A stretch of DNA of 63,987 bases, filler included, from an uncultured Methanosarcinales archaeon (lineage in GTDB: Archaea; Nanobdellota; Nanobdellia; Woesearchaeales; UBA12501), in NCBI GenBank assembly GCA_964397315.1. It is 4 parts of 4 records of this genome, joined end to end, with 100 filler letters (N's around TTAATTAATTAA, not from the genome) between each part and the next. Parts side by side here need not be neighbours in the genome. Positions count along the whole stretch, not along the records: positions 40,985 to 60,807 come from CAYNHV010000023.1; 3 more parts are not named here. The stretch is one strand, 5' to 3'. The notes below the pieces were generated by a model, which saw nothing but the letters and a program-made list of their open reading frames with translations, was not told the DNA's origin and made no database searches. This document shows positions 440 through 60,907 of the stretch, in pieces; the stretch's first letter is position 1, and each line of letters starts with the position of its first letter. The translations under genes and the position numbers were made by a program.

Positions 440-1153
440 TTAGATCGCCCCCCTCTGGCACAGCCTTATTATGTGTTTTGCCATCCGTTTCGTGTCAGGC
501 CCTCCCCCTTTCTTAAGGATTTTCTTCTTTTCTGCTATGCTTTGAAGCGTTTCAATGCTGTCATCTCTCCCTTCAACCCCGAAATATCTCTCTATCCTCC
601 CTTTCATGGTTTCAATAATCTCTGCAGCAACCATTTCAGGATCCTCAATCCTTTCAGGGTCAACAGCGCCGATTGCAGCATGGCCTGCCCTCTCTCTTCC
701 AAGGGGGATCAATCCTGGAGTGTCAATCATCATTATCCTGCTGCTTATCCTTAGCTTTTGCATGCCTCTTGTGTGGCCTGCAGCAGGGCTTGTGGAAGCG
801 CTCTTCTTTCCCTTTAATATGTTTATGAGGGTTGACTTGCCTGTGTTGGGGTATCCCACAACGCCCACAACCGCGCTTTTCTTTCCTGCCATTGATTTTA
901 TTCTTCTCATAAGCCTTAATGTGCCCAGCCTGTTCCTTGCGCTTATCCTTACCGAGTTAGGGATTCTCTTCTGGCCCTTCCTGTCCACCAGGTCACACTT
1001 GTTAACCACATAAAGAAACCTCTTCCCCATGCGCTTTATGATAGACTCAAGCCACCTGCTTCTGCTTCCCTCAACATCCCTTGCGTCTATGACTATAAGA
1101 AGTATATCAGACTCTCTTATTACCCCCTCCACTACTCTTGCCGGATTTTTCAT
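440..1153 (-). CDS. Circularly permuted GTPase, YlqF/RbgA family
   Basis: DAR, NKCD (G4), GYPNTGKS (G1), T (G2), DTPG (G3) in permuted order; start moved to MKNPAR. Confidence 0.9.
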   Translation of the reverse strand: MKNPARVVEGVIRESDILLIVIDARDVEGSRSRWLESIIKRMGKRFLYVVNKCDLVDRKGQKRIPNSVRISARNRLGTLRLMRRIKSMAGKKSAVVGVVGYPNTGKSTLINILKGKKSASTSPAAGHTRGMQKLRISSRIMMIDTPGLIPLGRERAGHAAIGAVDPERIEDPEMVAAEIIETMKGRIERYFGVEGRDDSIETLQSIAEKKKILKKGGGPDTKRMAKHIIRLCQRGAI

Positions 1154-1187
1154 TATCAAGAAAAGGCAGGAAGAATAAAATGGGGAA

Positions 1188-1406
1188 TCAGCTTTTAGCG
1201 GCAAGCTTTATGTCCTTTCCCTTGACTGTTTTCCTGCCTGCATGGCTTGCATATCTTACTGCTGAGGCAGCAAGCTCATCTGCCTTTTCCTCAATTATGT
1301 CCTTCAGAGCTGCCTTTGCCCTGTCAGATACCCTGTCAGCTCCTGCATGCTTGAGCACCTTTTCCATAGCTGCCAGAGGCAGCAGTTTTTTGCTAAGGTT
1401 GGTCAT
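1188..1406 (-). CDS. Archaeal histone (HMf family)
   Basis: LPLAAMEKVLK..GADRVS..A..HAGRKTVK..DI histone-fold signature. Confidence 0.95.
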   Translation of the reverse strand: MTNLSKKLLPLAAMEKVLKHAGADRVSDRAKAALKDIIEEKADELAASAVRYASHAGRKTVKGKDIKLAAKS

Positions 1407-1652
1407 GTTTATCCCTCCACCCCTTCTGTCTGACTAGGCTGAGGCTTATTTATAAATATTTTGCTTGCTGGCATGTTGTTCTGCTCGTGAAACCCCTCAA
1501 CCTCTTCTATAAGCCAAATAAGCCAAAAAAGGCGGTTCTGCCTGTTTTTGGGGAAAAAGCTCTTTTATACTGCTTTTTGTCATAAAAGAGCACTGGTCAC
1601 AGGACACTTAAGAGAGATAAGTATTTAAAAGAAGAAGCCATCTTTTTATCTT

Positions 1653-20823: not shown

Positions 20824-20923
20824 NNNNNNNNNNNNNNNNNNNNNNNNNNNNNNNNNNNNNNNNNNNNTTAATTAATTAANNNNNNNNNNNNNNNNNNNNN
20901 NNNNNNNNNNNNNNNNNNNNNNN
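20824..20923. other. Assembly junction (N + TTAATTAATTAA six-frame-stop linker)
   Basis: N run with the linker at 20868-20879. Confidence 0.97.
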
Positions 20924-32099: not shown

Positions 32100-32216
32100 G
32101 CCGGTGTAGCTTAGTGGTTAAAGCGCCACGCTCATAAAGTCCATGAGCGATGAGGCTTCGGCCTGTGATTATGGCGTGCTACGTGGAGATCGGGGGTTCA
32201 AGTCCCCTCACCGGCA
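32100..32216 (+). tRNA. tRNA-Met(CAT), elongator type, with 44-nt intron at 37/38 (32137-32180)
   Basis: GCCGGTG/CACCGGC acceptor stem, CCACG/CGTGG anticodon stem, GTTCAAGTC T-loop. Confidence 0.88.
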
Positions 32217-39073: not shown

Positions 39074-39242
39074 NNNNNNNNNNNNNNNNNNNNNNNNNNN
39101 NNNNNNNNNNNNNNNNNNNNNNNNNNNNNNNNNNNNNNNNNNNNNNNNNNNNNNNNNNNNNNNNNNNNNNNNNCCAAGGGGATTCGAACCCCTACCGACC
39201 GGGCCGAAACCGGTAGCACTATCCTGGTTATGCTATGGGGCC
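39069..39242 (-). tRNA. tRNA-Arg(TCG); 3' acceptor strand interrupted by a 100-N scaffold gap (39074-39173)
   Basis: GGCCCCA..., ACCGG-TTTCGGC-CCGGT anticodon arm, GGTTCGAATCC; GACC|CCAAGGGG joins seamlessly across the gap. Confidence 0.85.
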
Positions 39243-40884: not shown

Positions 40885-40984
40885 NNNNNNNNNNNNNNNN
40901 NNNNNNNNNNNNNNNNNNNNNNNNNNNNTTAATTAATTAANNNNNNNNNNNNNNNNNNNNNNNNNNNNNNNNNNNNNNNNNNNN
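40885..40984. other. Assembly junction (N + TTAATTAATTAA linker)
   Basis: N run with the linker at 40929-40940. Confidence 0.97.
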
Positions 40985-41039
40985 TCACGAGGAGAATTTT
41001 TTCGAGGAAATTGAACTTCCCTTAAGCCCGATGTTAGTT
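40985..41039 (+). repeat. attC-like site 1 (right half only, truncated by the contig end)
   Basis: ...CTTAAGCCCGAT-GTTAGTT, same right end as sites 5 and 6. Confidence 0.7.
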
Positions 41040-41088
41040 GCAATTATTTTCAAGGGCTAAAAATGAGAAGGGGGGACAATTTCAAGAA

Positions 41089-41718
41089 TTACTTTATTGC
41101 TTCAATATCAAATGCTTTCATTTCATCAAAATATATAGTTGGTTTGATCTTAAATTGAGAAAATTTAGATAATATTTGTTTAATTTCTTTTTTAGAAAAA
41201 TAGTGATGAGCCATATGTGGATCATCTTCCATGCCGCCTAAAAAAGTATTTGCTTCAATTTCCTTACCTCTTCCATAACTTGCATCTTTAATTGACATAA
41301 ACTCAGTTACGAGCATGCCTTTAGGTTTAAGAATTCTATATATTTCATCAACTGCTTCTTGATTATCTTTTAATAATCCATGACTTAGAACAAAAATACA
41401 AATTATTGCATCAAAATAATTGTCTGGATAAAAAGTGTGCTTTATATCTGCTACTTTGTAATTAATAGTGCGTAAGCCAATTTTTTCAGCTTTCTTTTTA
41501 GTAATTGATATGCCTGTTTTAGATGCATCTAATGCATAAACTAAAAAGCCTTCTTGAGCAAAGAATAAAGTATTTCTACCAGTCCCAGATCCTAAATCTA
41601 AAATCTTTTTGTATTTATGTTCTCTAAAAATCTGAGCATACTTTTTAATTCGGGGTATTATCTTAGGATACAAATCCCCATGCTTTTTATAAACTATTTC
41701 CCAACCTTCTTCTTTCAT
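41089..41718 (-). CDS. Class I SAM-dependent methyltransferase (cassette 1)
   Basis: ILDLGSGTGR, DAS, FDAI, IYRILKP.G. Confidence 0.9.
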   Translation of the reverse strand: MKEEGWEIVYKKHGDLYPKIIPRIKKYAQIFREHKYKKILDLGSGTGRNTLFFAQEGFLVYALDASKTGISITKKKAEKIGLRTINYKVADIKHTFYPDNYFDAIICIFVLSHGLLKDNQEAVDEIYRILKPKGMLVTEFMSIKDASYGRGKEIEANTFLGGMEDDPHMAHHYFSKKEIKQILSKFSQFKIKPTIYFDEMKAFDIEAIK

Positions 41719-41906
41719 ATAAAATGTTTAATATTTAAAACATTAATAAATGTTACTAAAATTCTTGAAATGAAATTGTCCCCCTGTTATTGTTGGTTCT
41801 TGATAGTCGCTATTCGCTCTTTTGATAGAACACCCTTGAAAATAACTCTTCGGGATTTTTTGCTTCGCAAAAATCGTTGCACTATCCCTCGGTCACTTCG
41901 TGACGC

Positions 41907-42030
41907 AACTAACAGCGATTAAAACTCCGCTCACTTGCAGTTCGCTACGCCCTTCGGTTTTGTGGGTTGCCTCAAAACCTACGGGGAAATAAATCCTTCG
42001 GATTTACTTCTCTTAATCGCGATGTTAGTT
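41907..42030 (+). repeat. attC-like site 2 (124 bp)
   Basis: AACTAAC-AGCGATTAA ... TTAATCGC-GAT-GTTAGTT paired ends with internal CTTCG hairpins. Confidence 0.85.
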
Positions 42031-42162
42031 TCAATTTTTTCGGGGGCTATAAAGATAATGGGGCACACTCTTGATAGTGCTACGCACTCTATTCTTTAAC
42101 TAAATGAATTTGGGAAATCTAGAAGAAATACTAAAAAAATAGTGGGCTAAAATAAGAAGAAA

Positions 42163-42630
42163 TTAGGACAATTTCTCTTTATCCAATAATTGCTTTAACT
42201 TTTGTAATGCTACTTTATTATTCTCCCATTTTAACAAGCTTAATGCTTTATCAAATCGAACCCATTCAAAAGTTTCATGTTCTGGATAAATGTTATTATG
42301 AATAGATATTGATAAGTTTGGATTAACTTCAAAACCAAACACATATTCAGTAATAGTGGGTATTGGTTCTCCTGTAAGATAATGTTTGTTTATCTCAAAG
42401 AGATCCACATTTTCAATGACTCTAGTAATATTTTCTTTTTTAATGCTTGCTTCTTCTAATAGTTCTCTATATGCCGCGTCTAGTTTTGAGTTATCGCTTT
42501 TTTCTAACCCGCCACATGGAGGTTGCCAGAATCCACCTTTTTCTGGAATCCTTTTTAATAAAAGGAACTCAAAAAAACCTTTATTTTTTCTAAACACAAT
42601 ACATTCTATTCGCGTAGTTCTCATTTTCAT
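42163..42630 (-). CDS. NUDIX hydrolase (NudB/dATP pyrophosphohydrolase-like; cassette 2)
   Basis: LLLKR, FWQ..GG.E.....AA.RELLEE Nudix box, EH..FEW. Confidence 0.9.
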   Translation of the reverse strand: MKMRTTRIECIVFRKNKGFFEFLLLKRIPEKGGFWQPPCGGLEKSDNSKLDAAYRELLEEASIKKENITRVIENVDLFEINKHYLTGEPIPTITEYVFGFEVNPNLSISIHNNIYPEHETFEWVRFDKALSLLKWENNKVALQKLKQLLDKEKLS

Positions 42631-43826
42631 TTAACTCCTGACAATTTACAATATGTACTCCCTTCTGGATTTAATTGCCCATATAATTCCATTTCTAATG
42701 TAAATCCTGAACATTTTTTTCCATAATCAATACATTGATCACATCTTTCTTTAAATTGCTTGCTATTTTGTCTAATTGTCTGAAGTCTTTTGTTATATCT
42801 CCAAACATTTAAGAGAGAATACCTTTCAGAAACAATATTTCCTAGAACCAATTCATCTCTTAATTGTGGATTTACATATAATACACAACCTCCAGCATAT
42901 AAATCCCCATTTGACATTATATTAAATCTAGTAAATCCATCTGAACCTCCTTCCATTAAACCAAATTGTTCTGAATTAATGGAGTTTTCTCTCAAACTAC
43001 TGCCTCTGGTCCTAACTTCTAAATTAGGATATTCAGCTTTCAATTCATCCACTTTAATCATAAAAACGCTTAATTCATCATAATCTAAGAGTTTATCTTT
43101 TATTTTTGAAGCTCTACCAATCGGTCTTGGATGAAAGAAACTTATATCATAACAAAATTCATTCGCAAAATCTAAAAGTTTTCTTACGTCTTCTTCATTA
43201 ATTAAAGAAGTAACTACGGAATTTATGGTAACTCTACAACCAGCATAACTTAATTGCTTAATTGATTCTGTTGCTTTGTCAAATGTTCCTTTGCCTCTAA
43301 TATAATTATTTCCCTCCCTAAAACCATCAAGACTAATACTAACTTCATCTGGATTTATTTCAATTAATTTTTCTAAGGTATTTTGGGTATATAAACCATT
43401 TGAGTTTAATGAGATTGTTAATCCGATTTCTTTTGCTCGTTTTAATATTGTATCCCATCCTTCTTTAAGGGTTGGTTCACCTCCGCTAAAACGGACATCA
43501 AATACTGAGTCATTACTTAATCCTTCAATAACTTTTATTGATTGTTCTAAACTTAGTTCATCATTTAATGGAACCCCAGAATTATTTAGACAAGTCTTGC
43601 ACCGAAGATTACAGGCGGCAGTTAAATCAAAATAAACTCTTATCGGAGAATATATTATTGATGTGTCTTTAAAAAATGGCTGATTATCAAATTCGATTAT
43701 GGCGTTATTTTTCTTGAATTTTAAAAAATCTTCATTTAGTAAAAAGAAATGTTCAAAACTATTTGGATCAAATATGGTCTTTCCAAATGTTTCATTTCTG
43801 GATTTAACTTGCTTTTTTTCTTTCAT
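42627..43826 (-). CDS. Radical SAM protein with degenerate SPASM domain (cassette 2)
   Basis: CNLRCKTC, SGGEP, SLDG; C-terminal CDQC-x6-C. Confidence 0.9.
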   Translation of the reverse strand: MKEKKQVKSRNETFGKTIFDPNSFEHFFLLNEDFLKFKKNNAIIEFDNQPFFKDTSIIYSPIRVYFDLTAACNLRCKTCLNNSGVPLNDELSLEQSIKVIEGLSNDSVFDVRFSGGEPTLKEGWDTILKRAKEIGLTISLNSNGLYTQNTLEKLIEINPDEVSISLDGFREGNNYIRGKGTFDKATESIKQLSYAGCRVTINSVVTSLINEEDVRKLLDFANEFCYDISFFHPRPIGRASKIKDKLLDYDELSVFMIKVDELKAEYPNLEVRTRGSSLRENSINSEQFGLMEGGSDGFTRFNIMSNGDLYAGGCVLYVNPQLRDELVLGNIVSERYSLLNVWRYNKRLQTIRQNSKQFKERCDQCIDYGKKCSGFTLEMELYGQLNPEGSTYCKLSGVK

Positions 43827-44261
43827 TGAATGATGTTCTCATTTCTAAATAATTCCATTTCATATTCAAGTTCTTTTTTTTGATTTAGCCCTATGTATTG
43901 CATTTTTAACGATATACAATCCACTACTAGTTATATCTAAGCCTCTTCCATACCCATATCTTAAGGAATTTCTTGCACAATATTTTGGATTAGAGAATCT
44001 TCCAGACAATTCATAAAATCTTGCTATTGCGGATTCCCCTTTAATAAGTCCTAATTCGCATGGTGCTTCAAACATATACTCCATAAGAGCCGAATAATGC
44101 GATTGCCCAACATCAGAAGGATAAAATTTTGCCAATAATTCAGGATAAAACTCTAACACGTTTGTTTCCAATAATTCAAAATGATTAGCAATTTTAGATT
44201 TAATTTGTTCTCTTTTATTCCAACCATCTGGTTTTATTATAAATAAAGTTTTTTCTATCAT
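43823..44261 (-). pseudogene. ndk: Nucleoside diphosphate kinase-like, frameshifted in an A8 run near the 3' end
   Basis: TLFIIKPDG, S.R..YG, NAIH; removing one A gives SKKELEYEMELF...Q* with an ATGA overlap to the next gene. Confidence 0.75.
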
Positions 44262-44262
44262 T

Positions 44263-45456
44263 TTAATAAATACAATATGGATTTTTGTGTTCTGGATTTT
44301 TCTCTCTATAAAATTCCATTTCTATACTTGCTCCGGGACATTTTACATTCTTTTCGGGACATTTTAAACAAGATTCCTGTAATCTTAAACTTATTTCTCT
44401 AAATTCTTTTAATTTAGGAGAATTTCTCCAAATATCTAATAAGCTATAATCTTCTTCTTTGATATTACCTAAATAAAAATCAGGTCTCAAATGCGGAGTA
44501 TAACCTCCAGGCCAGATGGATCCATTAGGTAACAAATTAAACCTTGTAAAACCATCAGGACCTCCCATTTTTAATCCTACGCTCGATGTAACATCAGAAG
44601 ATATTGAATTAACTACCATAACTTTAGATCCATGTAAGATTCTCATCTGCGAATATTTCGGTTTAAGTTTTTCAATTTTTTCATCAAACTCATGTAACTC
44701 TTCGTAGGAAATTACCTGGTCTAAAATTCCAAGTGCTCTACCTGCTGTTCTCATATAAAAGAAATTGATTTCTTCAACAAATCTTCCAGCTAAGTCCAAA
44801 ATTTCTTCAAGATTGTTAGCAGCTCCTTTAGTTAAAACTGTGTTTATTCTTAAATGAGCGCCTTGTTTATGGAGATCTTCGAGTGTCTTAACAGTTCTTT
44901 CGTAGTTTCCTTTACCCCTTATATAATCATGAAAATCCTGACCTCCATCAATGCTAATAGTTATTTGTTCTAAATCCAAACTTGCTAATTGATCAATAGT
45001 TTTTTCAGGATTTCTATAAACTCCATTAGTGTTCAAAGATACAGAAAAACCCAAATCTTTTGCATAACTTAATATTTCAAACCAATCAGGTCTTGCAGTA
45101 ACTTCTCCCCCGCTAAATCTAATATCAAAAACATTGTCATTCCTTAACCCATCTAAAGTTTTTGTTATTTCTTCAGTAGTCATTTCATCAGATTTAGCTT
45201 TTCCAGACTGATTAAAACAGGTTTTGCATCTAAGAAGACAAGCAGAAGTCAACTCAAAATAAATTCTTATAGGAGAATAAATTATATCATCTGGTGCTTC
45301 GGACAAATCCGCAGTCCATTTTTCAAAATCTTCAACCTCTATATCTGAAAATTTCAAATCATCTGCACTTGATAAAAATTTATGGCGCATTCTAACTTTA
45401 TCAAAGAGAGTATATCCAAACTTTTCATCACGTAAAATAAACCTTTTAGCACTCAT
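44263..45456 (-). CDS. Radical SAM protein with degenerate SPASM domain (cassette 2; paralog of 42627-43826)
   Basis: CLLRCKTC, SGGE, SIDG; C-terminal CLKC-x6-C. Confidence 0.9.
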   Translation of the reverse strand: MSAKRFILRDEKFGYTLFDKVRMRHKFLSSADDLKFSDIEVEDFEKWTADLSEAPDDIIYSPIRIYFELTSACLLRCKTCFNQSGKAKSDEMTTEEITKTLDGLRNDNVFDIRFSGGEVTARPDWFEILSYAKDLGFSVSLNTNGVYRNPEKTIDQLASLDLEQITISIDGGQDFHDYIRGKGNYERTVKTLEDLHKQGAHLRINTVLTKGAANNLEEILDLAGRFVEEINFFYMRTAGRALGILDQVISYEELHEFDEKIEKLKPKYSQMRILHGSKVMVVNSISSDVTSSVGLKMGGPDGFTRFNLLPNGSIWPGGYTPHLRPDFYLGNIKEEDYSLLDIWRNSPKLKEFREISLRLQESCLKCPEKNVKCPGASIEMEFYREKNPEHKNPYCIY

Positions 45457-45710
45457 TACTACTAATAAATAACAACAAATATATAAAGATTTTGTTTAAA
45501 AATATAAATAATTTCAGGAATAGAAATTAACTACTCTTCTTCGCCCCAAAACCCCTACGAATAGCAGTAAAGATTTCCCCAATTATAGATGTAAAATAAC
45601 GAGTGTGCCCCTTGATGTATGTTCTAGATGGTCGCTATTCGCTCCAAAGATTGAACGCCCCCGAAAAAACTTTTCGGACGAAATTTTCCCACACTTCGTA
45701 TGGGAAAAGA

Positions 45711-45840
45711 AACTAACAGGAATTTAACGGTTCGCAGGGTCGGCTTCGCCTAAAACGCCAAGCGTTTTCCTCTGCTCTCCCAAATTCAAAATTTGTGGGT
45801 TGCCTCAAATTTTGAACTTCGTTAAATTCCTCAGTTATAT
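45711..45840 (+). repeat. attC-like site 3 (130 bp)
   Basis: AACTAAC-AGGAATTTAACG ... CGTTAAATTCCTCA-GTTATAT. Confidence 0.85.
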
Positions 45841-45902
45841 TCAATTATTTTTCAGCCCCTAAATAGAAATCTTTATGAACTTTAATATATAATCTTATTA
45901 TT

Positions 45903-46163
45903 ATGAGTGATTTTGAAAAAAGGCTTAATGCAATTGAGCAAAGAAACAAGAAAGTTGAATCAGATAAAGCTTGGGAAACAAGCTGGTCAAGAAAAATAAT
46001 AATAGCCGTTTTAACTTACGCCACAATAGTATTATTTTTCTTTGTTGCTCAATTGCCAAAACCATTCATTAATTCTATTGTTCCAACAGCTGGTTTTGTT
46101 CTTTCAACATTATCCTTGCCTTTTTTCAAAAAAATATGGTTGAAGTATGGGGCTAAAAAATAA
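45903..46163 (+). CDS. Small two-TM membrane protein (cassette 3)
   Basis: RN.KVE.DKAWETSW.R followed by 2 TMs; own TATA box. Confidence 0.8.
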   Translation: MSDFEKRLNAIEQRNKKVESDKAWETSWSRKIIIAVLTYATIVLFFFVAQLPKPFINSIVPTAGFVLSTLSLPFFKKIWLKYGAKK

Positions 46164-46214
46164 CTCTGAAATTTCCCTTCGGGACGTTGCACTAAAATTC
46201 AGCCCTAACGGGGA

Positions 46215-46240
46215 ATATAACAGGAATTCCGAGGTTATGC
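46215..46240 (+). repeat. Minimal attC-like site 4 (26 bp)
   Basis: ATATAAC-AGGAATTCCGAG-GTTATGC. Confidence 0.7.
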
Positions 46241-46378
46241 TCAATTTTGATTTTTCTGGATTGTTTTTGAAAGATTCTTGACGGCAGCAACAACAAGGGA
46301 TTCATACACGGTCAGCCTTCGCTTCGCTCAGTCTGCCCTATTCGCAAAGGAAAAAACCCCACTGCGCAGGGTGAAAGA

Positions 46379-46490
46379 GCATAACAGGGCTTAAACGGTT
46401 CGAAACGACCGCCTCCGGCTATTTTGCCAAGCAAAATTCGTTCCTCCCCCAAATTTGCTACGCAAATCTCGCTTACGCCCGATGTTATGC
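46379..46490 (+). repeat. attC-like site 5 (112 bp)
   Basis: GCATAAC-AGGGCTTAA ... TTACGCCCGAT-GTTATGC. Confidence 0.85.
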
Positions 46491-46564
46491 TCAATTCAGA
46501 AAAAATGGTGGATGTAATTTGCGATTAGATAGTTTTTTATAATAGCTTTGTATTAATTCATTAA

Positions 46565-46945
46565 ATGGATACAAACCAACCCCAAAATCTCACCAAAAAA
46601 ACAGCAATGAAAAGATTCCTAATAATTTTAGTTGGCACAATTATCTTTGCTTTAGTATTTGTATATTTACAACATGGCAGAATTCAAAGTACTATTTTAA
46701 TTGCTTTTGCAATCGTCGTTCCTATCATGATAATAAGTGCAATAGTTGGTTTTAAGTATCGCGATTCGATTGCAAATCTTAAAAATAAGTTATGGTACTT
46801 CCTTCTAATTATTGGAATACTGATGGCAATAATCAATTTAGTATTGGTTTTTTTGGAAGGAAGCAATTTTAATTATTATCTTCAGATTGGGATTGGTTTG
46901 ATGTTTGTAATTTACTCTATCTACAAGATAAAAAACACCCCATAA
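46565..46945 (+). CDS. Four-TM membrane protein (cassette 5)
   Basis: 126 aa, four hydrophobic segments, TTTTTATAATA promoter. Confidence 0.8.
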   Translation: MDTNQPQNLTKKTAMKRFLIILVGTIIFALVFVYLQHGRIQSTILIAFAIVVPIMIISAIVGFKYRDSIANLKNKLWYFLLIIGILMAIINLVLVFLEGSNFNYYLQIGIGLMFVIYSIYKIKNTP

Positions 46946-47014
46946 TAACATTTTTTCTGAACTCGAAATTTTTGCCTCCGGCATCGTTGCACTAAAATTC
47001 AGCCCTAACGGAGA

Positions 47015-47039
47015 GCATAACAGGGCCCCGATGTTAGTT
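47015..47039 (+). repeat. Minimal attC-like site 6 (25 bp)
   Basis: GCATAAC-AGGGCCCCGAT-GTTAGTT. Confidence 0.7.
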
Positions 47040-47058
47040 GTAATTTGTAATCTAAAAC

Positions 47059-47550
47059 CTAGCTATAATCATAATGTAATTTTTCAAGAAGAGTATATAA
47101 TTTCCTATCCACAGAAATGCATAATTCTAGTTTATCATCAAAAGACATAGAAGAATATCCTTCGGTTTCTGGAAAAGGATTGATTGTTAAATCATTTCTA
47201 TTTAGAACTATATTCAATCTCATTAATCCAACTCCTGCATGAGTTCCCCAACAATTCAATCCCAATTTATTATGTCTTTTATGCCAATCATATTCTTCTT
47301 CTGAAAAAGAATATCTTAAATTATGCATTTCTTGATGAACATTAGTTCCCATATCAATTGGATAAGTTCCTAACAAATAATATTCTAATCTAGAAACTAT
47401 TTCTGTTGCGTTTCCATTAATTATTCCCGCTACATTAGGAACTTCTCTATATGTTGGTTCAAAAAACTGAAACGAATATTTTTCTTCAAAATGTTTAATC
47501 CATTTTGCATGTGCAGTTTTTTGTTCTGGAACTAATGTCTTCATATTCAT
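47059..47550 (-). CDS. Hypothetical protein (cassette 6)
   Basis: 163-aa AT-rich ORF filling the cassette, own TATA box. Confidence 0.75.
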   Translation of the reverse strand: MNMKTLVPEQKTAHAKWIKHFEEKYSFQFFEPTYREVPNVAGIINGNATEIVSRLEYYLLGTYPIDMGTNVHQEMHNLRYSFSEEEYDWHKRHNKLGLNCWGTHAGVGLMRLNIVLNRNDLTINPFPETEGYSSMSFDDKLELCISVDRKLYTLLEKLHYDYS

Positions 47551-47670
47551 ATATTACGGAAATTATATGCTCATTATAAAGCTTTTGACGGTTTTAGATT
47601 ACAAACTCTTCGGGATTTTTTCACTTCGTGAAAAACCACTTGCAGTTATCCCTCGGTCACTTCGTGACAC

Positions 47671-47695
47671 AACTAACAGGAATCCGATGTTACTC
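47671..47695 (+). repeat. Minimal attC-like site 7 (25 bp), array terminus
   Basis: AACTAAC-AGGAATCCGAT-GTTACTC; GC content returns to host level immediately after. Confidence 0.7.
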
Positions 47696-47696
47696 C

Positions 47697-48152
47697 TCAA
47701 AGGAATCTGCTCATTATGCTGAGGTCCTCACCATCCACGAAGTGGCTCCTGAGAAGTCCTTCCTCTTCAAATCCTGTAGAGGTGTAGAATTTTTTGTACT
47801 CCTGGAATGTCAGCGCGTGCAGCTTTCTTATGCCTCTCTTCCTGGAAATCTCAATGATGCTCTCAAGAATCTCCCTTCCATTACCTTTCCCCCTGTGCCG
47901 GGGCCACACAACCAGGTCTCTTATCTCTGCTGTGCCGCTCACATCAGTGATGAGAGAGACAGTCCCTATCCTTTCCCCTCCTTTCATGTAGATAAAGAAC
48001 TCATCATTATTTATCTCTTTCTTGTGCCCCTGCTTAAGGTAATCCTCAGCCCACTTTTTGTCATACTGCGGAGCTCCCCTCTCCCTCCAGTACTCTGCAA
48101 GAAGCTCTGCAGCTTCGCTCTCATCCTCAGGTTTAAGTCTTTCCAGGGCCAT
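47697..48152 (-). CDS. GNAT family acetyltransferase
   Basis: LVV.P.HRGKG.G, FY...GF..EG. Confidence 0.9.
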   Translation of the reverse strand: MALERLKPEDESEAAELLAEYWRERGAPQYDKKWAEDYLKQGHKKEINNDEFFIYMKGGERIGTVSLITDVSGTAEIRDLVVWPRHRGKGNGREILESIIEISRKRGIRKLHALTFQEYKKFYTSTGFEEEGLLRSHFVDGEDLSIMSRFL

Positions 48153-54638: not shown

Positions 54639-54729
54639 AGCGAGGTGGGGCAGTCAGGAGTGCCCGACGGGCTCATAATCCTCTTGTTGGGAGACCCGTA
54701 GGTCGGTGGTTCAAATCCACCCCTCGCTA
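54639..54729 (+). tRNA. Initiator tRNA-Met(CAT) with 16-nt intron (54678-54693)
   Basis: A1:T72 pair, GGG/CCC anticodon stem, BHB CTCA/TGGG. Confidence 0.92.
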
Positions 54730-60807: not shown

Positions 60808-60907
60808 NNNNNNNNNNNNNNNNNNNNNNNNNNNNNNNNNNNNNNNNNNNNTTAATTAATTAANNNNNNNNNNNNNNNNNNNNNNNNNNNNNNNNNNNNN
60901 NNNNNNN
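60808..60907. other. Assembly junction (N + TTAATTAATTAA linker)
   Basis: N run with the linker at 60852-60863. Confidence 0.97.

Follow-up and report, generated by a model that had tools for sequence, protein, structure and literature searches.

Nested stems and a covarying junction module in integron-like gene cassettes of DPANN archaea

The gene cassettes of IntI integrons are tandem units with AAC...GTT inverse cores, in which the left end of each cassette is complementary to its own R'', and their attC sites, in which an unpaired spacer separates the R stem from the L stem, are biased toward folding of the bottom strand. How such cassettes are created, and which determinants beyond the attC hairpin govern their mobility, are open questions. 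In IMEX, the Xer-dependent integrating elements such as CTX phage, it is folded single-stranded DNA that mimics dif. With regard to archaea, the available part of the survey by Ghaly et al. 2022 (PMC9668308) gives only six IntIs in 75 archaeal bins, and the available part of its Data S1 already lists Nanoarchaeota attC clusters, every one of them without IntI. Here we analysed a cassette array at 40985-47690 (6.7 kb) of a 63,987-nt stretch of DNA, hereafter the window, from an uncultured archaeal genome bin (GenBank assembly GCA_964397315.1), in which the cargo of most cassettes is bracketed by inverted repeats (arms) and followed by a hairpin-rich module outside the attC site. Arrays of this kind are a real, widespread and apparently undescribed variant of integron cassettes. 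We lean toward the interpretation that the arms and modules are the conserved scaffold of an integron-like cassette family in DPANN (Nanoarchaeota-type) archaea, which would fold as bottom-strand single-stranded DNA for recombination; the anatomy, conservation, covariation and strand bias of this scaffold are directly supported by the observations.

As positioned on the plus strand of the window, six tandem cassettes were delimited by GTT cores at 41033, 42024, 45834, 46234, 46484, 47033 and 47689. Each was bounded by an inverse core R'' ending in AAC and a core R' beginning with GTT, as integron cassettes are, and the junction motif (L'-R') was matched three times in the window as opposed to none in shuffled sequences. 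In all six cassettes R'' was the exact 9-nt complement of the first nine bases of the same cassette (9/9), which is the signature of a circular intermediate. Five of the six carried arms in a uniform arrangement, in that the G|TT crossover was followed by TT, six variable bases, AA and then the left arm, which thus began exactly 10 nt past the crossover in 5/5 cases, while the right arm was followed by CTC or CTT, the module and R'', again in 5/5. All seven inverted-repeat pairs that an earlier note on this DNA had claimed were recovered. In cassette c1 (41034-42024, 991 nt), the outer arms 41044-41056 and 41833-41845 were complementary at 13/13 positions, with CTC following, and enclosed a nested inner pair at 41071-41084 and 41771-41784 (14/14). 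Likewise, cassette c2 (42025-45834, 3810 nt) possessed outer arms at 42035-42047 and 45657-45669 (13/13, followed by CTT) and an inner pair at 42061-42070 and 45601-45610 (10/10), which extends to 11 bp when taken as 42060-42070 and 45601-45611. Perfect outer pairs were also present in cassette c4 (46485-47033, 549 nt; 46495-46507 and 46949-46961, 13/13) and cassette c5 (47034-47689, 656 nt; 47044-47059 and 47590-47605, 16/16), both followed by CTC. The fifth outer pair, in cassette c3 (45835-46234, 400 nt; 45845-45859 and 46149-46163), matched at 14/15 positions, and its single mismatch, C.A on the top strand, corresponds to G.T on the bottom strand. The remaining cassette c3b (46235-46484), which lacks an open reading frame (ORF), had no arms (best score 6).

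Between the inner and outer right arms, c1 carried an inner module (41785-41832) consisting of a small hairpin and TTGATAG repeats and containing GTCGCTATTCGCTC, and c2 carried a homologous one (45612-45656). The sharing of GTCGCTATTCGCTC by these two cassettes, also reported in the earlier note, was reproduced, with exactly two copies at 41806-41819 and 45631-45644; two matches were reached in 0 of 100 shuffles. The right ends of c1 and c2 were homologous (77% over 52 nt, against 45616-45667) while their arms differed by paired substitutions, indicating selection on the pairing itself. A plain count of inverted repeats of at least 13 nt gave 6 in the 6.7-kb array and 12 in the other 57 kb, as compared with a mean of 1.5 and a maximum of 6 in Markov shuffles of the array; since such a count is a poor discriminator, position-anchored tests were used instead.

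For these tests, species-representative genomes were scanned with the L'-R' junction motif, yielding at least 120 stretches, of which 80 were analysed with 2-kb flanks. According to the records' own labels, the 80 loci came mostly from Woese-, Pace- and Nanoarchaeota bins, together with a few ultra-small bacteria and a few probable chance matches. The best ungapped complement of the 26 nt after each junction was then scored wherever at least 1 kb of downstream sequence was available. A score of at least 11 was obtained downstream of 24 of 61 junctions from other genomes versus 4 of 60 upstream controls, and a score of at least 13 downstream of 20 of the 61 versus none of the 60. When cassettes were defined independently of arms, by an exact 9-nt R'/R'' complement (n = 49 across the window and the 80 loci), arms were present in 34, as opposed to 1 of 47 control windows placed inside cargo. 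Inclusion of the class with 8 of 9 R'/R'' positions matching brought the total to 46 armed cassettes from 32 loci and the window. Among these, the arm offset was 10 nt in 38, the right arm was followed by CTC, CTT or CTG in 39, the two arms were separated by 0.26-3.6 kb, and the pairing was perfect except for 4 isolated mismatches in the 46 arms. The arm sequences themselves differed widely across this set, so that the earlier observation of conserved pairing with variable sequence was upheld. The nested second pair, in contrast, had been described as a peculiarity of c1 and c2, and proved rather to be the rule, an inner stem score of at least 9 being found in 30 of 38 cassettes against 130 of 1370 cross-cassette pairings. 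In a class 1 integron array (one array of about six cassettes), no inverted repeat of at least 13 nt and no 11-12-nt repeat beside a core site was found; this control is thin, in that exact 7-mer R'/R'' matching gave one real cassette (arm score 5) and all inverted repeats were therefore listed. An assembly artefact was rejected on the ground that the same architecture recurred in 32 loci that had been assembled independently in different studies. The junction motif was additionally seen in bins labelled as bacteria, namely L016, L032, L080, L011 and L017 (Peribacteria, Dojkabacteria, Parcubacteria, Zapsychrus and Bdellovibrionales); armed cassettes were present in L011, L016, L017 and L032 and absent from L080. 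This distribution could reflect cross-domain sharing or mis-binning.

The arms fell into families, and in three of these a shared backbone, running from outer arm, A-rich spacer and G-rich inner arm through the cargo to inner arm', a TTGATA-bearing small hairpin and outer arm', carried in either orientation cargo proteins without significant similarity to one another (best E 0.024 over 21 aa). The longest ORF between the arms lay on the plus strand in 29 cassettes and on the minus strand in 17. The pattern of mostly promoterless single genes in one orientation, which is usual but not strict among integron cassettes, does not hold here, c2 containing four minus-strand genes (NUDIX, radical SAM/SPASM, NDK-like and radical SAM/SPASM, by Pfam); at 42025-45834 it is of unusual size for a cassette, yet both stems enclose it. 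Furthermore, locus L058 contained empty cassettes without any ORF, which retained the complete scaffold; the loops closed by their arms measure 70 and 37 nt. They lie at positions 40-296 and 297 to about 400 of that locus, and one of them is present twice, its second copy being at 2016-2126. Relative to 200 shuffles, one empty cassette folded at z = -3.9 on the bottom strand and at z = -4.1 on the top. A search among the loci for a gene-loaded relative of this empty backbone returned only its own two copies. The idea that arms are private to each gene was thus abandoned, because the same backbone bears unrelated cargo in either orientation and also exists empty; shared backbones with unrelated cargo, together with the empty cassettes, point to the arms as the stem of a backbone hairpin in whose loop the gene or genes reside. 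Judged from the sequences, the arms and modules appear to constitute one conserved, non-coding and reusable scaffold that is separate from the cargo.

The junction module occupies the 40-70 nt between the right arm and R'' and comprises a helix P1 around a triloop hairpin and a CGTTGCACT-like motif, followed by a second hairpin. In c1 (41846-41904), P1 is GGGA/TCCC and is accompanied by two triloop hairpins and the CGTTGCACT motif; c5 (47606-47668) belongs to the same subtype. The modules of c3 (46164-46212) and c4 (46962-47012) form another pair, and c2 has a reduced module (45670-45708) folding into two hairpins, of the same type as in L029, L069 and L016. The resemblances previously proposed between these modules were confirmed, 41883-41915 being 97% identical to 47647-47679 and 46185-46224 being 93% identical to 46985-47024. 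Since a MAFFT alignment of all module subtypes gave differing P1 registers, a covariance model was built from ten sequences of one subtype, for which RNAalifold indicated compensatory changes at 6 of the 9 P1 pairs. Across 324 kb the model gave 34 matches at E up to 0.01. Every one of them lay on the junction strand, and those in the window fell only inside the array, including 46164-46221 in c3 (72.7 bits, E = 7e-14), 46962-47021 in c4 (60.6 bits) and 41846-41913 in c1. The c1/c5 subtype was barely matched (c1 at E = 0.0014, c5 absent at E up to 0.01). Covariation, which the earlier note had proposed as a check, was evident in 31 distinct sequences aligned to the model's structure, where P1 had changed on both sides at 9/9 pairs with 92% of cells paired. 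The P1 covariation score was 0.545, compared with 0.18 in shuffles (0 of 500 reaching the observed value) and 0.04-0.15 with slid partners. Almost identical modules adjoined quite different arms.

The hairpins of the scaffold were strand-biased. In the array, the top-strand pentamer CTTCG, which is CGAAG on the bottom, occurred 19 times versus once for its complement, and the respective counts in the rest of the window were 17 and 13. When triloop hairpins (3-bp stem, 3-nt loop) were counted over the right ends of the 46 cassettes (12.2 kb), 58 triloops read TTC on the top strand (GAA on the bottom) as opposed to 6 reading GAA on the top; 55 of the 58 were closed by C-G, which bears out the suggestion that many loops are of the C-GAA-G type on the bottom strand. 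A further 31 triloops read TGC on the top strand, that is, GCA on the bottom, and UUCG-type tetraloops with a 3-bp stem numbered 2. The conserved motifs TTGCAC, TTGCAG and CTGCGC may likewise be read as GCA mini-hairpins on the bottom strand. C-G-closed GNA triloops are described, in the available portions of PMC13037366 and PMC3201870, as extraordinarily stable DNA mini-hairpins that are weaker as RNA and are poor binders of single-strand-binding protein, and the former source places such mini-hairpins at phage G4 priming sites, plasmid ssiA and phage N4 hairpin promoters. Of the single mismatches in the arms and R stems, about ten independent ones were G.T on the bottom strand, whereas no top-strand G.T was seen, regardless of gene direction. 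Moreover, the bottom strand was the more stable in 27 of 30 computed junction folds, by 2.55 kcal/mol on average, and DNA folds of the circularised junctions contained the arm stem, the module hairpins and the attC stem in 5/5 armed window cassettes. These features favour bottom-strand single-stranded DNA over RNA as the probable folding species, as in integron attC recombination. From the earlier proposal that the cassette folds as single-stranded DNA or RNA with the gene looped out, the placement of the gene in a hairpin loop was retained, and DNA was favoured over RNA (58 triloops against 2 UUCG tetraloops).

The attC sites themselves were of two forms. The long site of c1 (41905-42032) runs from R'' (41905-41913) through L'', central hairpins and L' to R' (42024-42032) and folds with an R stem of 10 bp and an L stem of 8 bp separated by a 2-nt bulge; that of c2 (45709-45842; R'' 45709-45717, R' 45834-45842) shares the 8-bp L stem and the 2-nt bulge. 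Long sites also occur in c3b (R'' 46377-46385) and at the left border of the array, where the contig start has left the 3' half (L'-R') of one site at 40985-41033, with the G of R' at 41033 and a motif match at 41018-41045. The sites of c3 (46213-46242; R'' 46213-46221, 12-nt spacer, R' 46234-46242), c4 (47013-47041; R'' 47013-47021, 11-nt spacer, R' 47033-47041) and c5 (47669-47697; R'' 47669-47677, G of R' at 47689) are short, consisting of R'', an 11-12-nt spacer and R' within about 29 nt, and their L stems are absent or limited to 2-3 bp, none of the three having a real one. Similar short sites are readable after R'' in L069, L044 and L010.

A gene for a tyrosine recombinase of 257-296 aa was located within 2 kb of a junction in five related loci (L009, L045, L046, L062 and L079). 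In 5/5 the gene and the first cassette were divergent, and that cassette was armed in every locus. The best-matching family was XerA_Arch in each case, the integron-integrase model TIGR02249 being matched only in two stretches and below its cut-off (5/5), and among solved structures Pyrococcus XerA was the nearest relative, along the entire length. In the comparison with Vibrio IntI4 (VchIntIA, 2a3v), residues 180-202 of the L062 enzyme stood opposite residues 180-245, from which it follows that about 43 residues are missing in L062 at the site of the IntI-specific domain; plasmid IntI1 aligned at 33% identity, with the stretch about 49 codons longer. Accordingly, an IntI with its specific domain beside an attI was found within the 2-kb flanks in none of the five loci. 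The recombinase belongs to a large family of uniform length, about 275 aa. The L046 enzyme (649-1419, minus strand) has a divergent C-terminus without an aligned catalytic tyrosine and may represent a frameshift or a decayed gene. The site at which the first cassette starts in the five loci has the form ..AAT, four bases, GTTA.. and lies 70-260 nt away from the start codon of the recombinase gene; it could be an attI or the chromosome's dif. The earlier suggestion of a distinct recombination system thus gained some support from five adjacent Xer-like recombinases without the IntI insertion in related loci; the window itself contains no recombinase.

On the basis of this anatomy, we propose that the cassette ends, as bottom-strand single-stranded DNA, would fold into a multi-helix junction. 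In this fold, the outer stem of 13-18 bp would begin 10 nt from the crossover and would usually be continued by the inner stem across an internal loop holding the small hairpin, leaving the cargo gene or genes as the terminal loop of a long hairpin. Between the outer stem and R'', P1 of the junction module would close two or three GAA/GCA-triloop mini-hairpins, and the R''/R' stem (9 bp), plus the L stem where present, would form the attC proper. Such a scaffold would exclude the cargo from the fold, unite the cassette ends and keep the R''/R' stem fast-folding; the GNA mini-hairpins may in addition resist opening by single-strand-binding protein, and the tyrosine recombinase could then act irrespective of the length or sequence of the cargo. 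The fold would be used in the excised single-stranded circle before integration, and within the array it would set both flanking crossover sites side by side; folding of the whole cassette in the array is inseparable from folding in the excised circle, as the topology is the same. From the sequence features we infer the single-stranded state at folding, the Xer-like neighbour as the enzyme and the role of the fold.

Other roles for the arms and modules were weighed against this proposal. If they were an sso/ssi-like initiation signal, recruiting primase or polymerase on the excised single-stranded circle instead of serving recombination, the strand-specific, non-coding, multi-hairpin structure would be expected, and GNA mini-hairpins are indeed placed at the G4, ssiA and N4 priming or promoter sites in the available part of PMC13037366. 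The fixed 10-nt crossover spacing and the coaxial position beside the R''/R' stem nevertheless suit recombination better, no replication gene was linked to the cassettes in the window (Pfam) or in the locus flanks, and the enclosure of the cargo by two nested stems would be left unexplained, so that we regard this explanation as unlikely. To a slightly lower degree still, the arms may be credited as a scar of cassette making, in which genes were inserted into the hairpin loop of an empty backbone and the split stem is now without function. The empty cassettes with arms around 70- and 37-nt loops, the occurrence of one backbone with unrelated cargo in both orientations and the identical modules beside different arms all agree with such an origin; the near-perfect pairing (4 isolated mismatches in 46 arms) and the compensating changes in the homologous c1 and c2 arms, the latter indicating selection on pairing, do not agree with a functionless remnant, and no loaded relative of the L058 backbone was present among the loci. 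The scar explanation is compatible with the recombination scaffold, as it accounts for the origin of the stems and not for their upkeep.

A role in RNA or transcription, with the stems marking cassette transcripts for processing or protection or with T-rich arms acting as two-way insulating terminators, appeared very improbable to us. It draws on the left arms being often T-rich on the top strand, and hence the right arms on the bottom strand, and on the many loops reading TTCG on the top strand. Those loops, however, are in triloop register and not UUCG tetraloops (58 vs 2), the wobbles in arms and R stems lie on the bottom strand for genes of either direction, the cargo itself runs in both directions (29 plus, 17 minus) with its own upstream region also inside the arms, termination at a T run would not need exact complementarity over 13-18 nt, and no Rfam family was matched. 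That the modules and arms are ordinary terminators, a possibility raised in the earlier note as one that would undo its interpretation, was also contradicted by the confinement of the module matches of the window to the array and by the distance of 0.26-3.6 kb between arms. The hallmark of an intrinsic terminator, a short local GC-rich hairpin with a T run found genome-wide, was absent, as the arms are distant and, in the window, the module matches are array-only. Finally, the flanking of a gene-bearing segment by inverted repeats raised the question of terminal inverted repeats of a transposon or miniature inverted-repeat element (MITE) inserted at an attC-bearing site. This we consider scarcely credible: a transposase requires conserved ends, and the arm sequences vary widely between cassettes; the position of the arms relative to R' is fixed; and no transposase was found in the window cassettes. 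The candidate was rejected since the arms are not conserved and their flanks (left ..AA, right CTC..) show no direct target duplication.

Several points weigh against the recombination scaffold that we favour. A single junction motif was used to collect every related locus, so the prevalence figures hold for this attC family only, and 15 of the 49 well-defined cassettes were without arms scoring at least 11. The P1 pair counts were taken from an alignment fitted to the model's structure, and P1 displayed no strand bias (6 top versus 5 bottom G.T cells). In three of the six window attCs there is no real L stem, so that the canonical two-monomer substrate is missing precisely where the module is best developed. 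No recombinase was found in the window by Pfam, and the array-side recombinase of the related loci could be a housekeeping Xer adjoining the array for other reasons. Folding of a cassette of 0.3-3.6 kb within the array would need a long single-stranded stretch, which argues against the array-state version of the proposal; archaeal Okazaki fragments are short, which weighs in the same direction.

In comparison with the described systems, these arrays share with integrons the tandem organisation, the inverse cores, the long attC form and bottom-strand bias, as well as the divergent tyrosine recombinase beside the first cassette in five related loci. Unlike integron cassettes, they enclose the cargo within two nested stems whose offset is fixed at 10 nt, carry a covarying junction module outside R'', make heavy use of GNA mini-hairpins, include many short sites without an L stem, and bear cargo in both orientations with up to a four-gene operon; the neighbouring recombinase differs in lacking the IntI-specific insertion, and the single class 1 integron array compared was without such arms. 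The resemblance to IMEX lies in an Xer-type recombinase without the IntI insertion, which would act on a folded single-stranded DNA site, and in the tandem pile-up at one place, while the arrays differ from IMEX in having no phage or replication genes, in their tiny and numerous cassettes and in an attC-like core (AAC/GTT with the R'/R'' swap) instead of a recognised dif. With the GNA-triloop initiation sites of the G4 origin, ssiA and N4, as given in the available part of PMC13037366, they have in common strand-specific C-GAA-G and GCA hairpins clustered in a non-coding, putative single-stranded DNA element; here, by contrast, the hairpins are part of the scaffold of a cassette recombination site. 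The earlier note had placed the arms and module outside the standard attC description. In agreement with this, descriptions of the arms, the module or the Xer-type array were not found in full-text searches of non-subscription literature, including the accessible parts of PMC9668308, PMC8138268 and PMC8371274.

More tentatively, and with doubt prevailing, the arrays may represent a second, Xer-type integron in DPANN and some ultra-small bacteria, in which a recombinase free of the IntI insertion acts on a large, self-folding single-stranded DNA scaffold in place of a bare attC hairpin and cassettes are made by loading genes into the terminal loop of the long hairpin of an empty backbone. If so, Xer-type arrays would be either a relative of the integron ancestor or a parallel invention, and would offer the first concrete, testable route to the creation of gene cassettes. 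For the scaffold itself, a conserved, covarying single-stranded DNA structure would divide a reusable backbone from exchangeable cargo in natural cassettes; the dependence of recombination on the scaffold and the loading at the hairpin tip are now directly testable. The link to a recombinase without the domain thought to define integron integrases bears on the origin of integrons from Xer-like enzymes, and cassette finders that rely on attC alone will misjudge these arrays, which have been recorded as attC clusters lacking an integrase.

As for the remaining cargo, c1 encodes a class I methyltransferase (41089-41718, minus strand; Pfam). An 86-aa ORF of c3 (45903-46163, plus strand) and a 163-aa ORF of c5 (47059-47550, minus strand) were without a Pfam match, the last codons and stop of the former being overlapped by the outer right arm, and c4 carries a 126-aa membrane-like ORF (46565-46945, plus strand). 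A blastn search with the cassette end 41785-42060 gave no match among plasmids and phages, and Rfam at E up to 1 returned for the array two chance-level matches below gathering level, both within coding sequence.

The window consists of several contigs of the archaeal genome bin joined by N44-TTAATTAATTAA-N44 linkers at 20824-20923, 40885-40984 and 60808-60907, and it contains one 100-N scaffold gap at 39074-39173. As the second linker ends at 40984, the contig of the array starts at 40985 and the array is truncated on its left side. At the right border, a GNAT acetyltransferase gene of host composition on the minus strand (47697-48152) has as its stop codon the TTA of the last core (G at 47689). 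The array thus stops precisely where that gene does, the short attC of c5 abutting the stop codon. The G+C content was 29-37% in the array and 41-52% in the remainder of the window, by which the cassettes look foreign to the host genome. Pfam matches on the window included histone, Hjc, Alba and archaeal ribosomal proteins. At gathering level, Rfam 15 identified three tRNAs only in the whole window; two of these matches, at 32100-32216 and 54639-54729, span 117 and 91 nt relative to a 71-position model and are probably intron-bearing.

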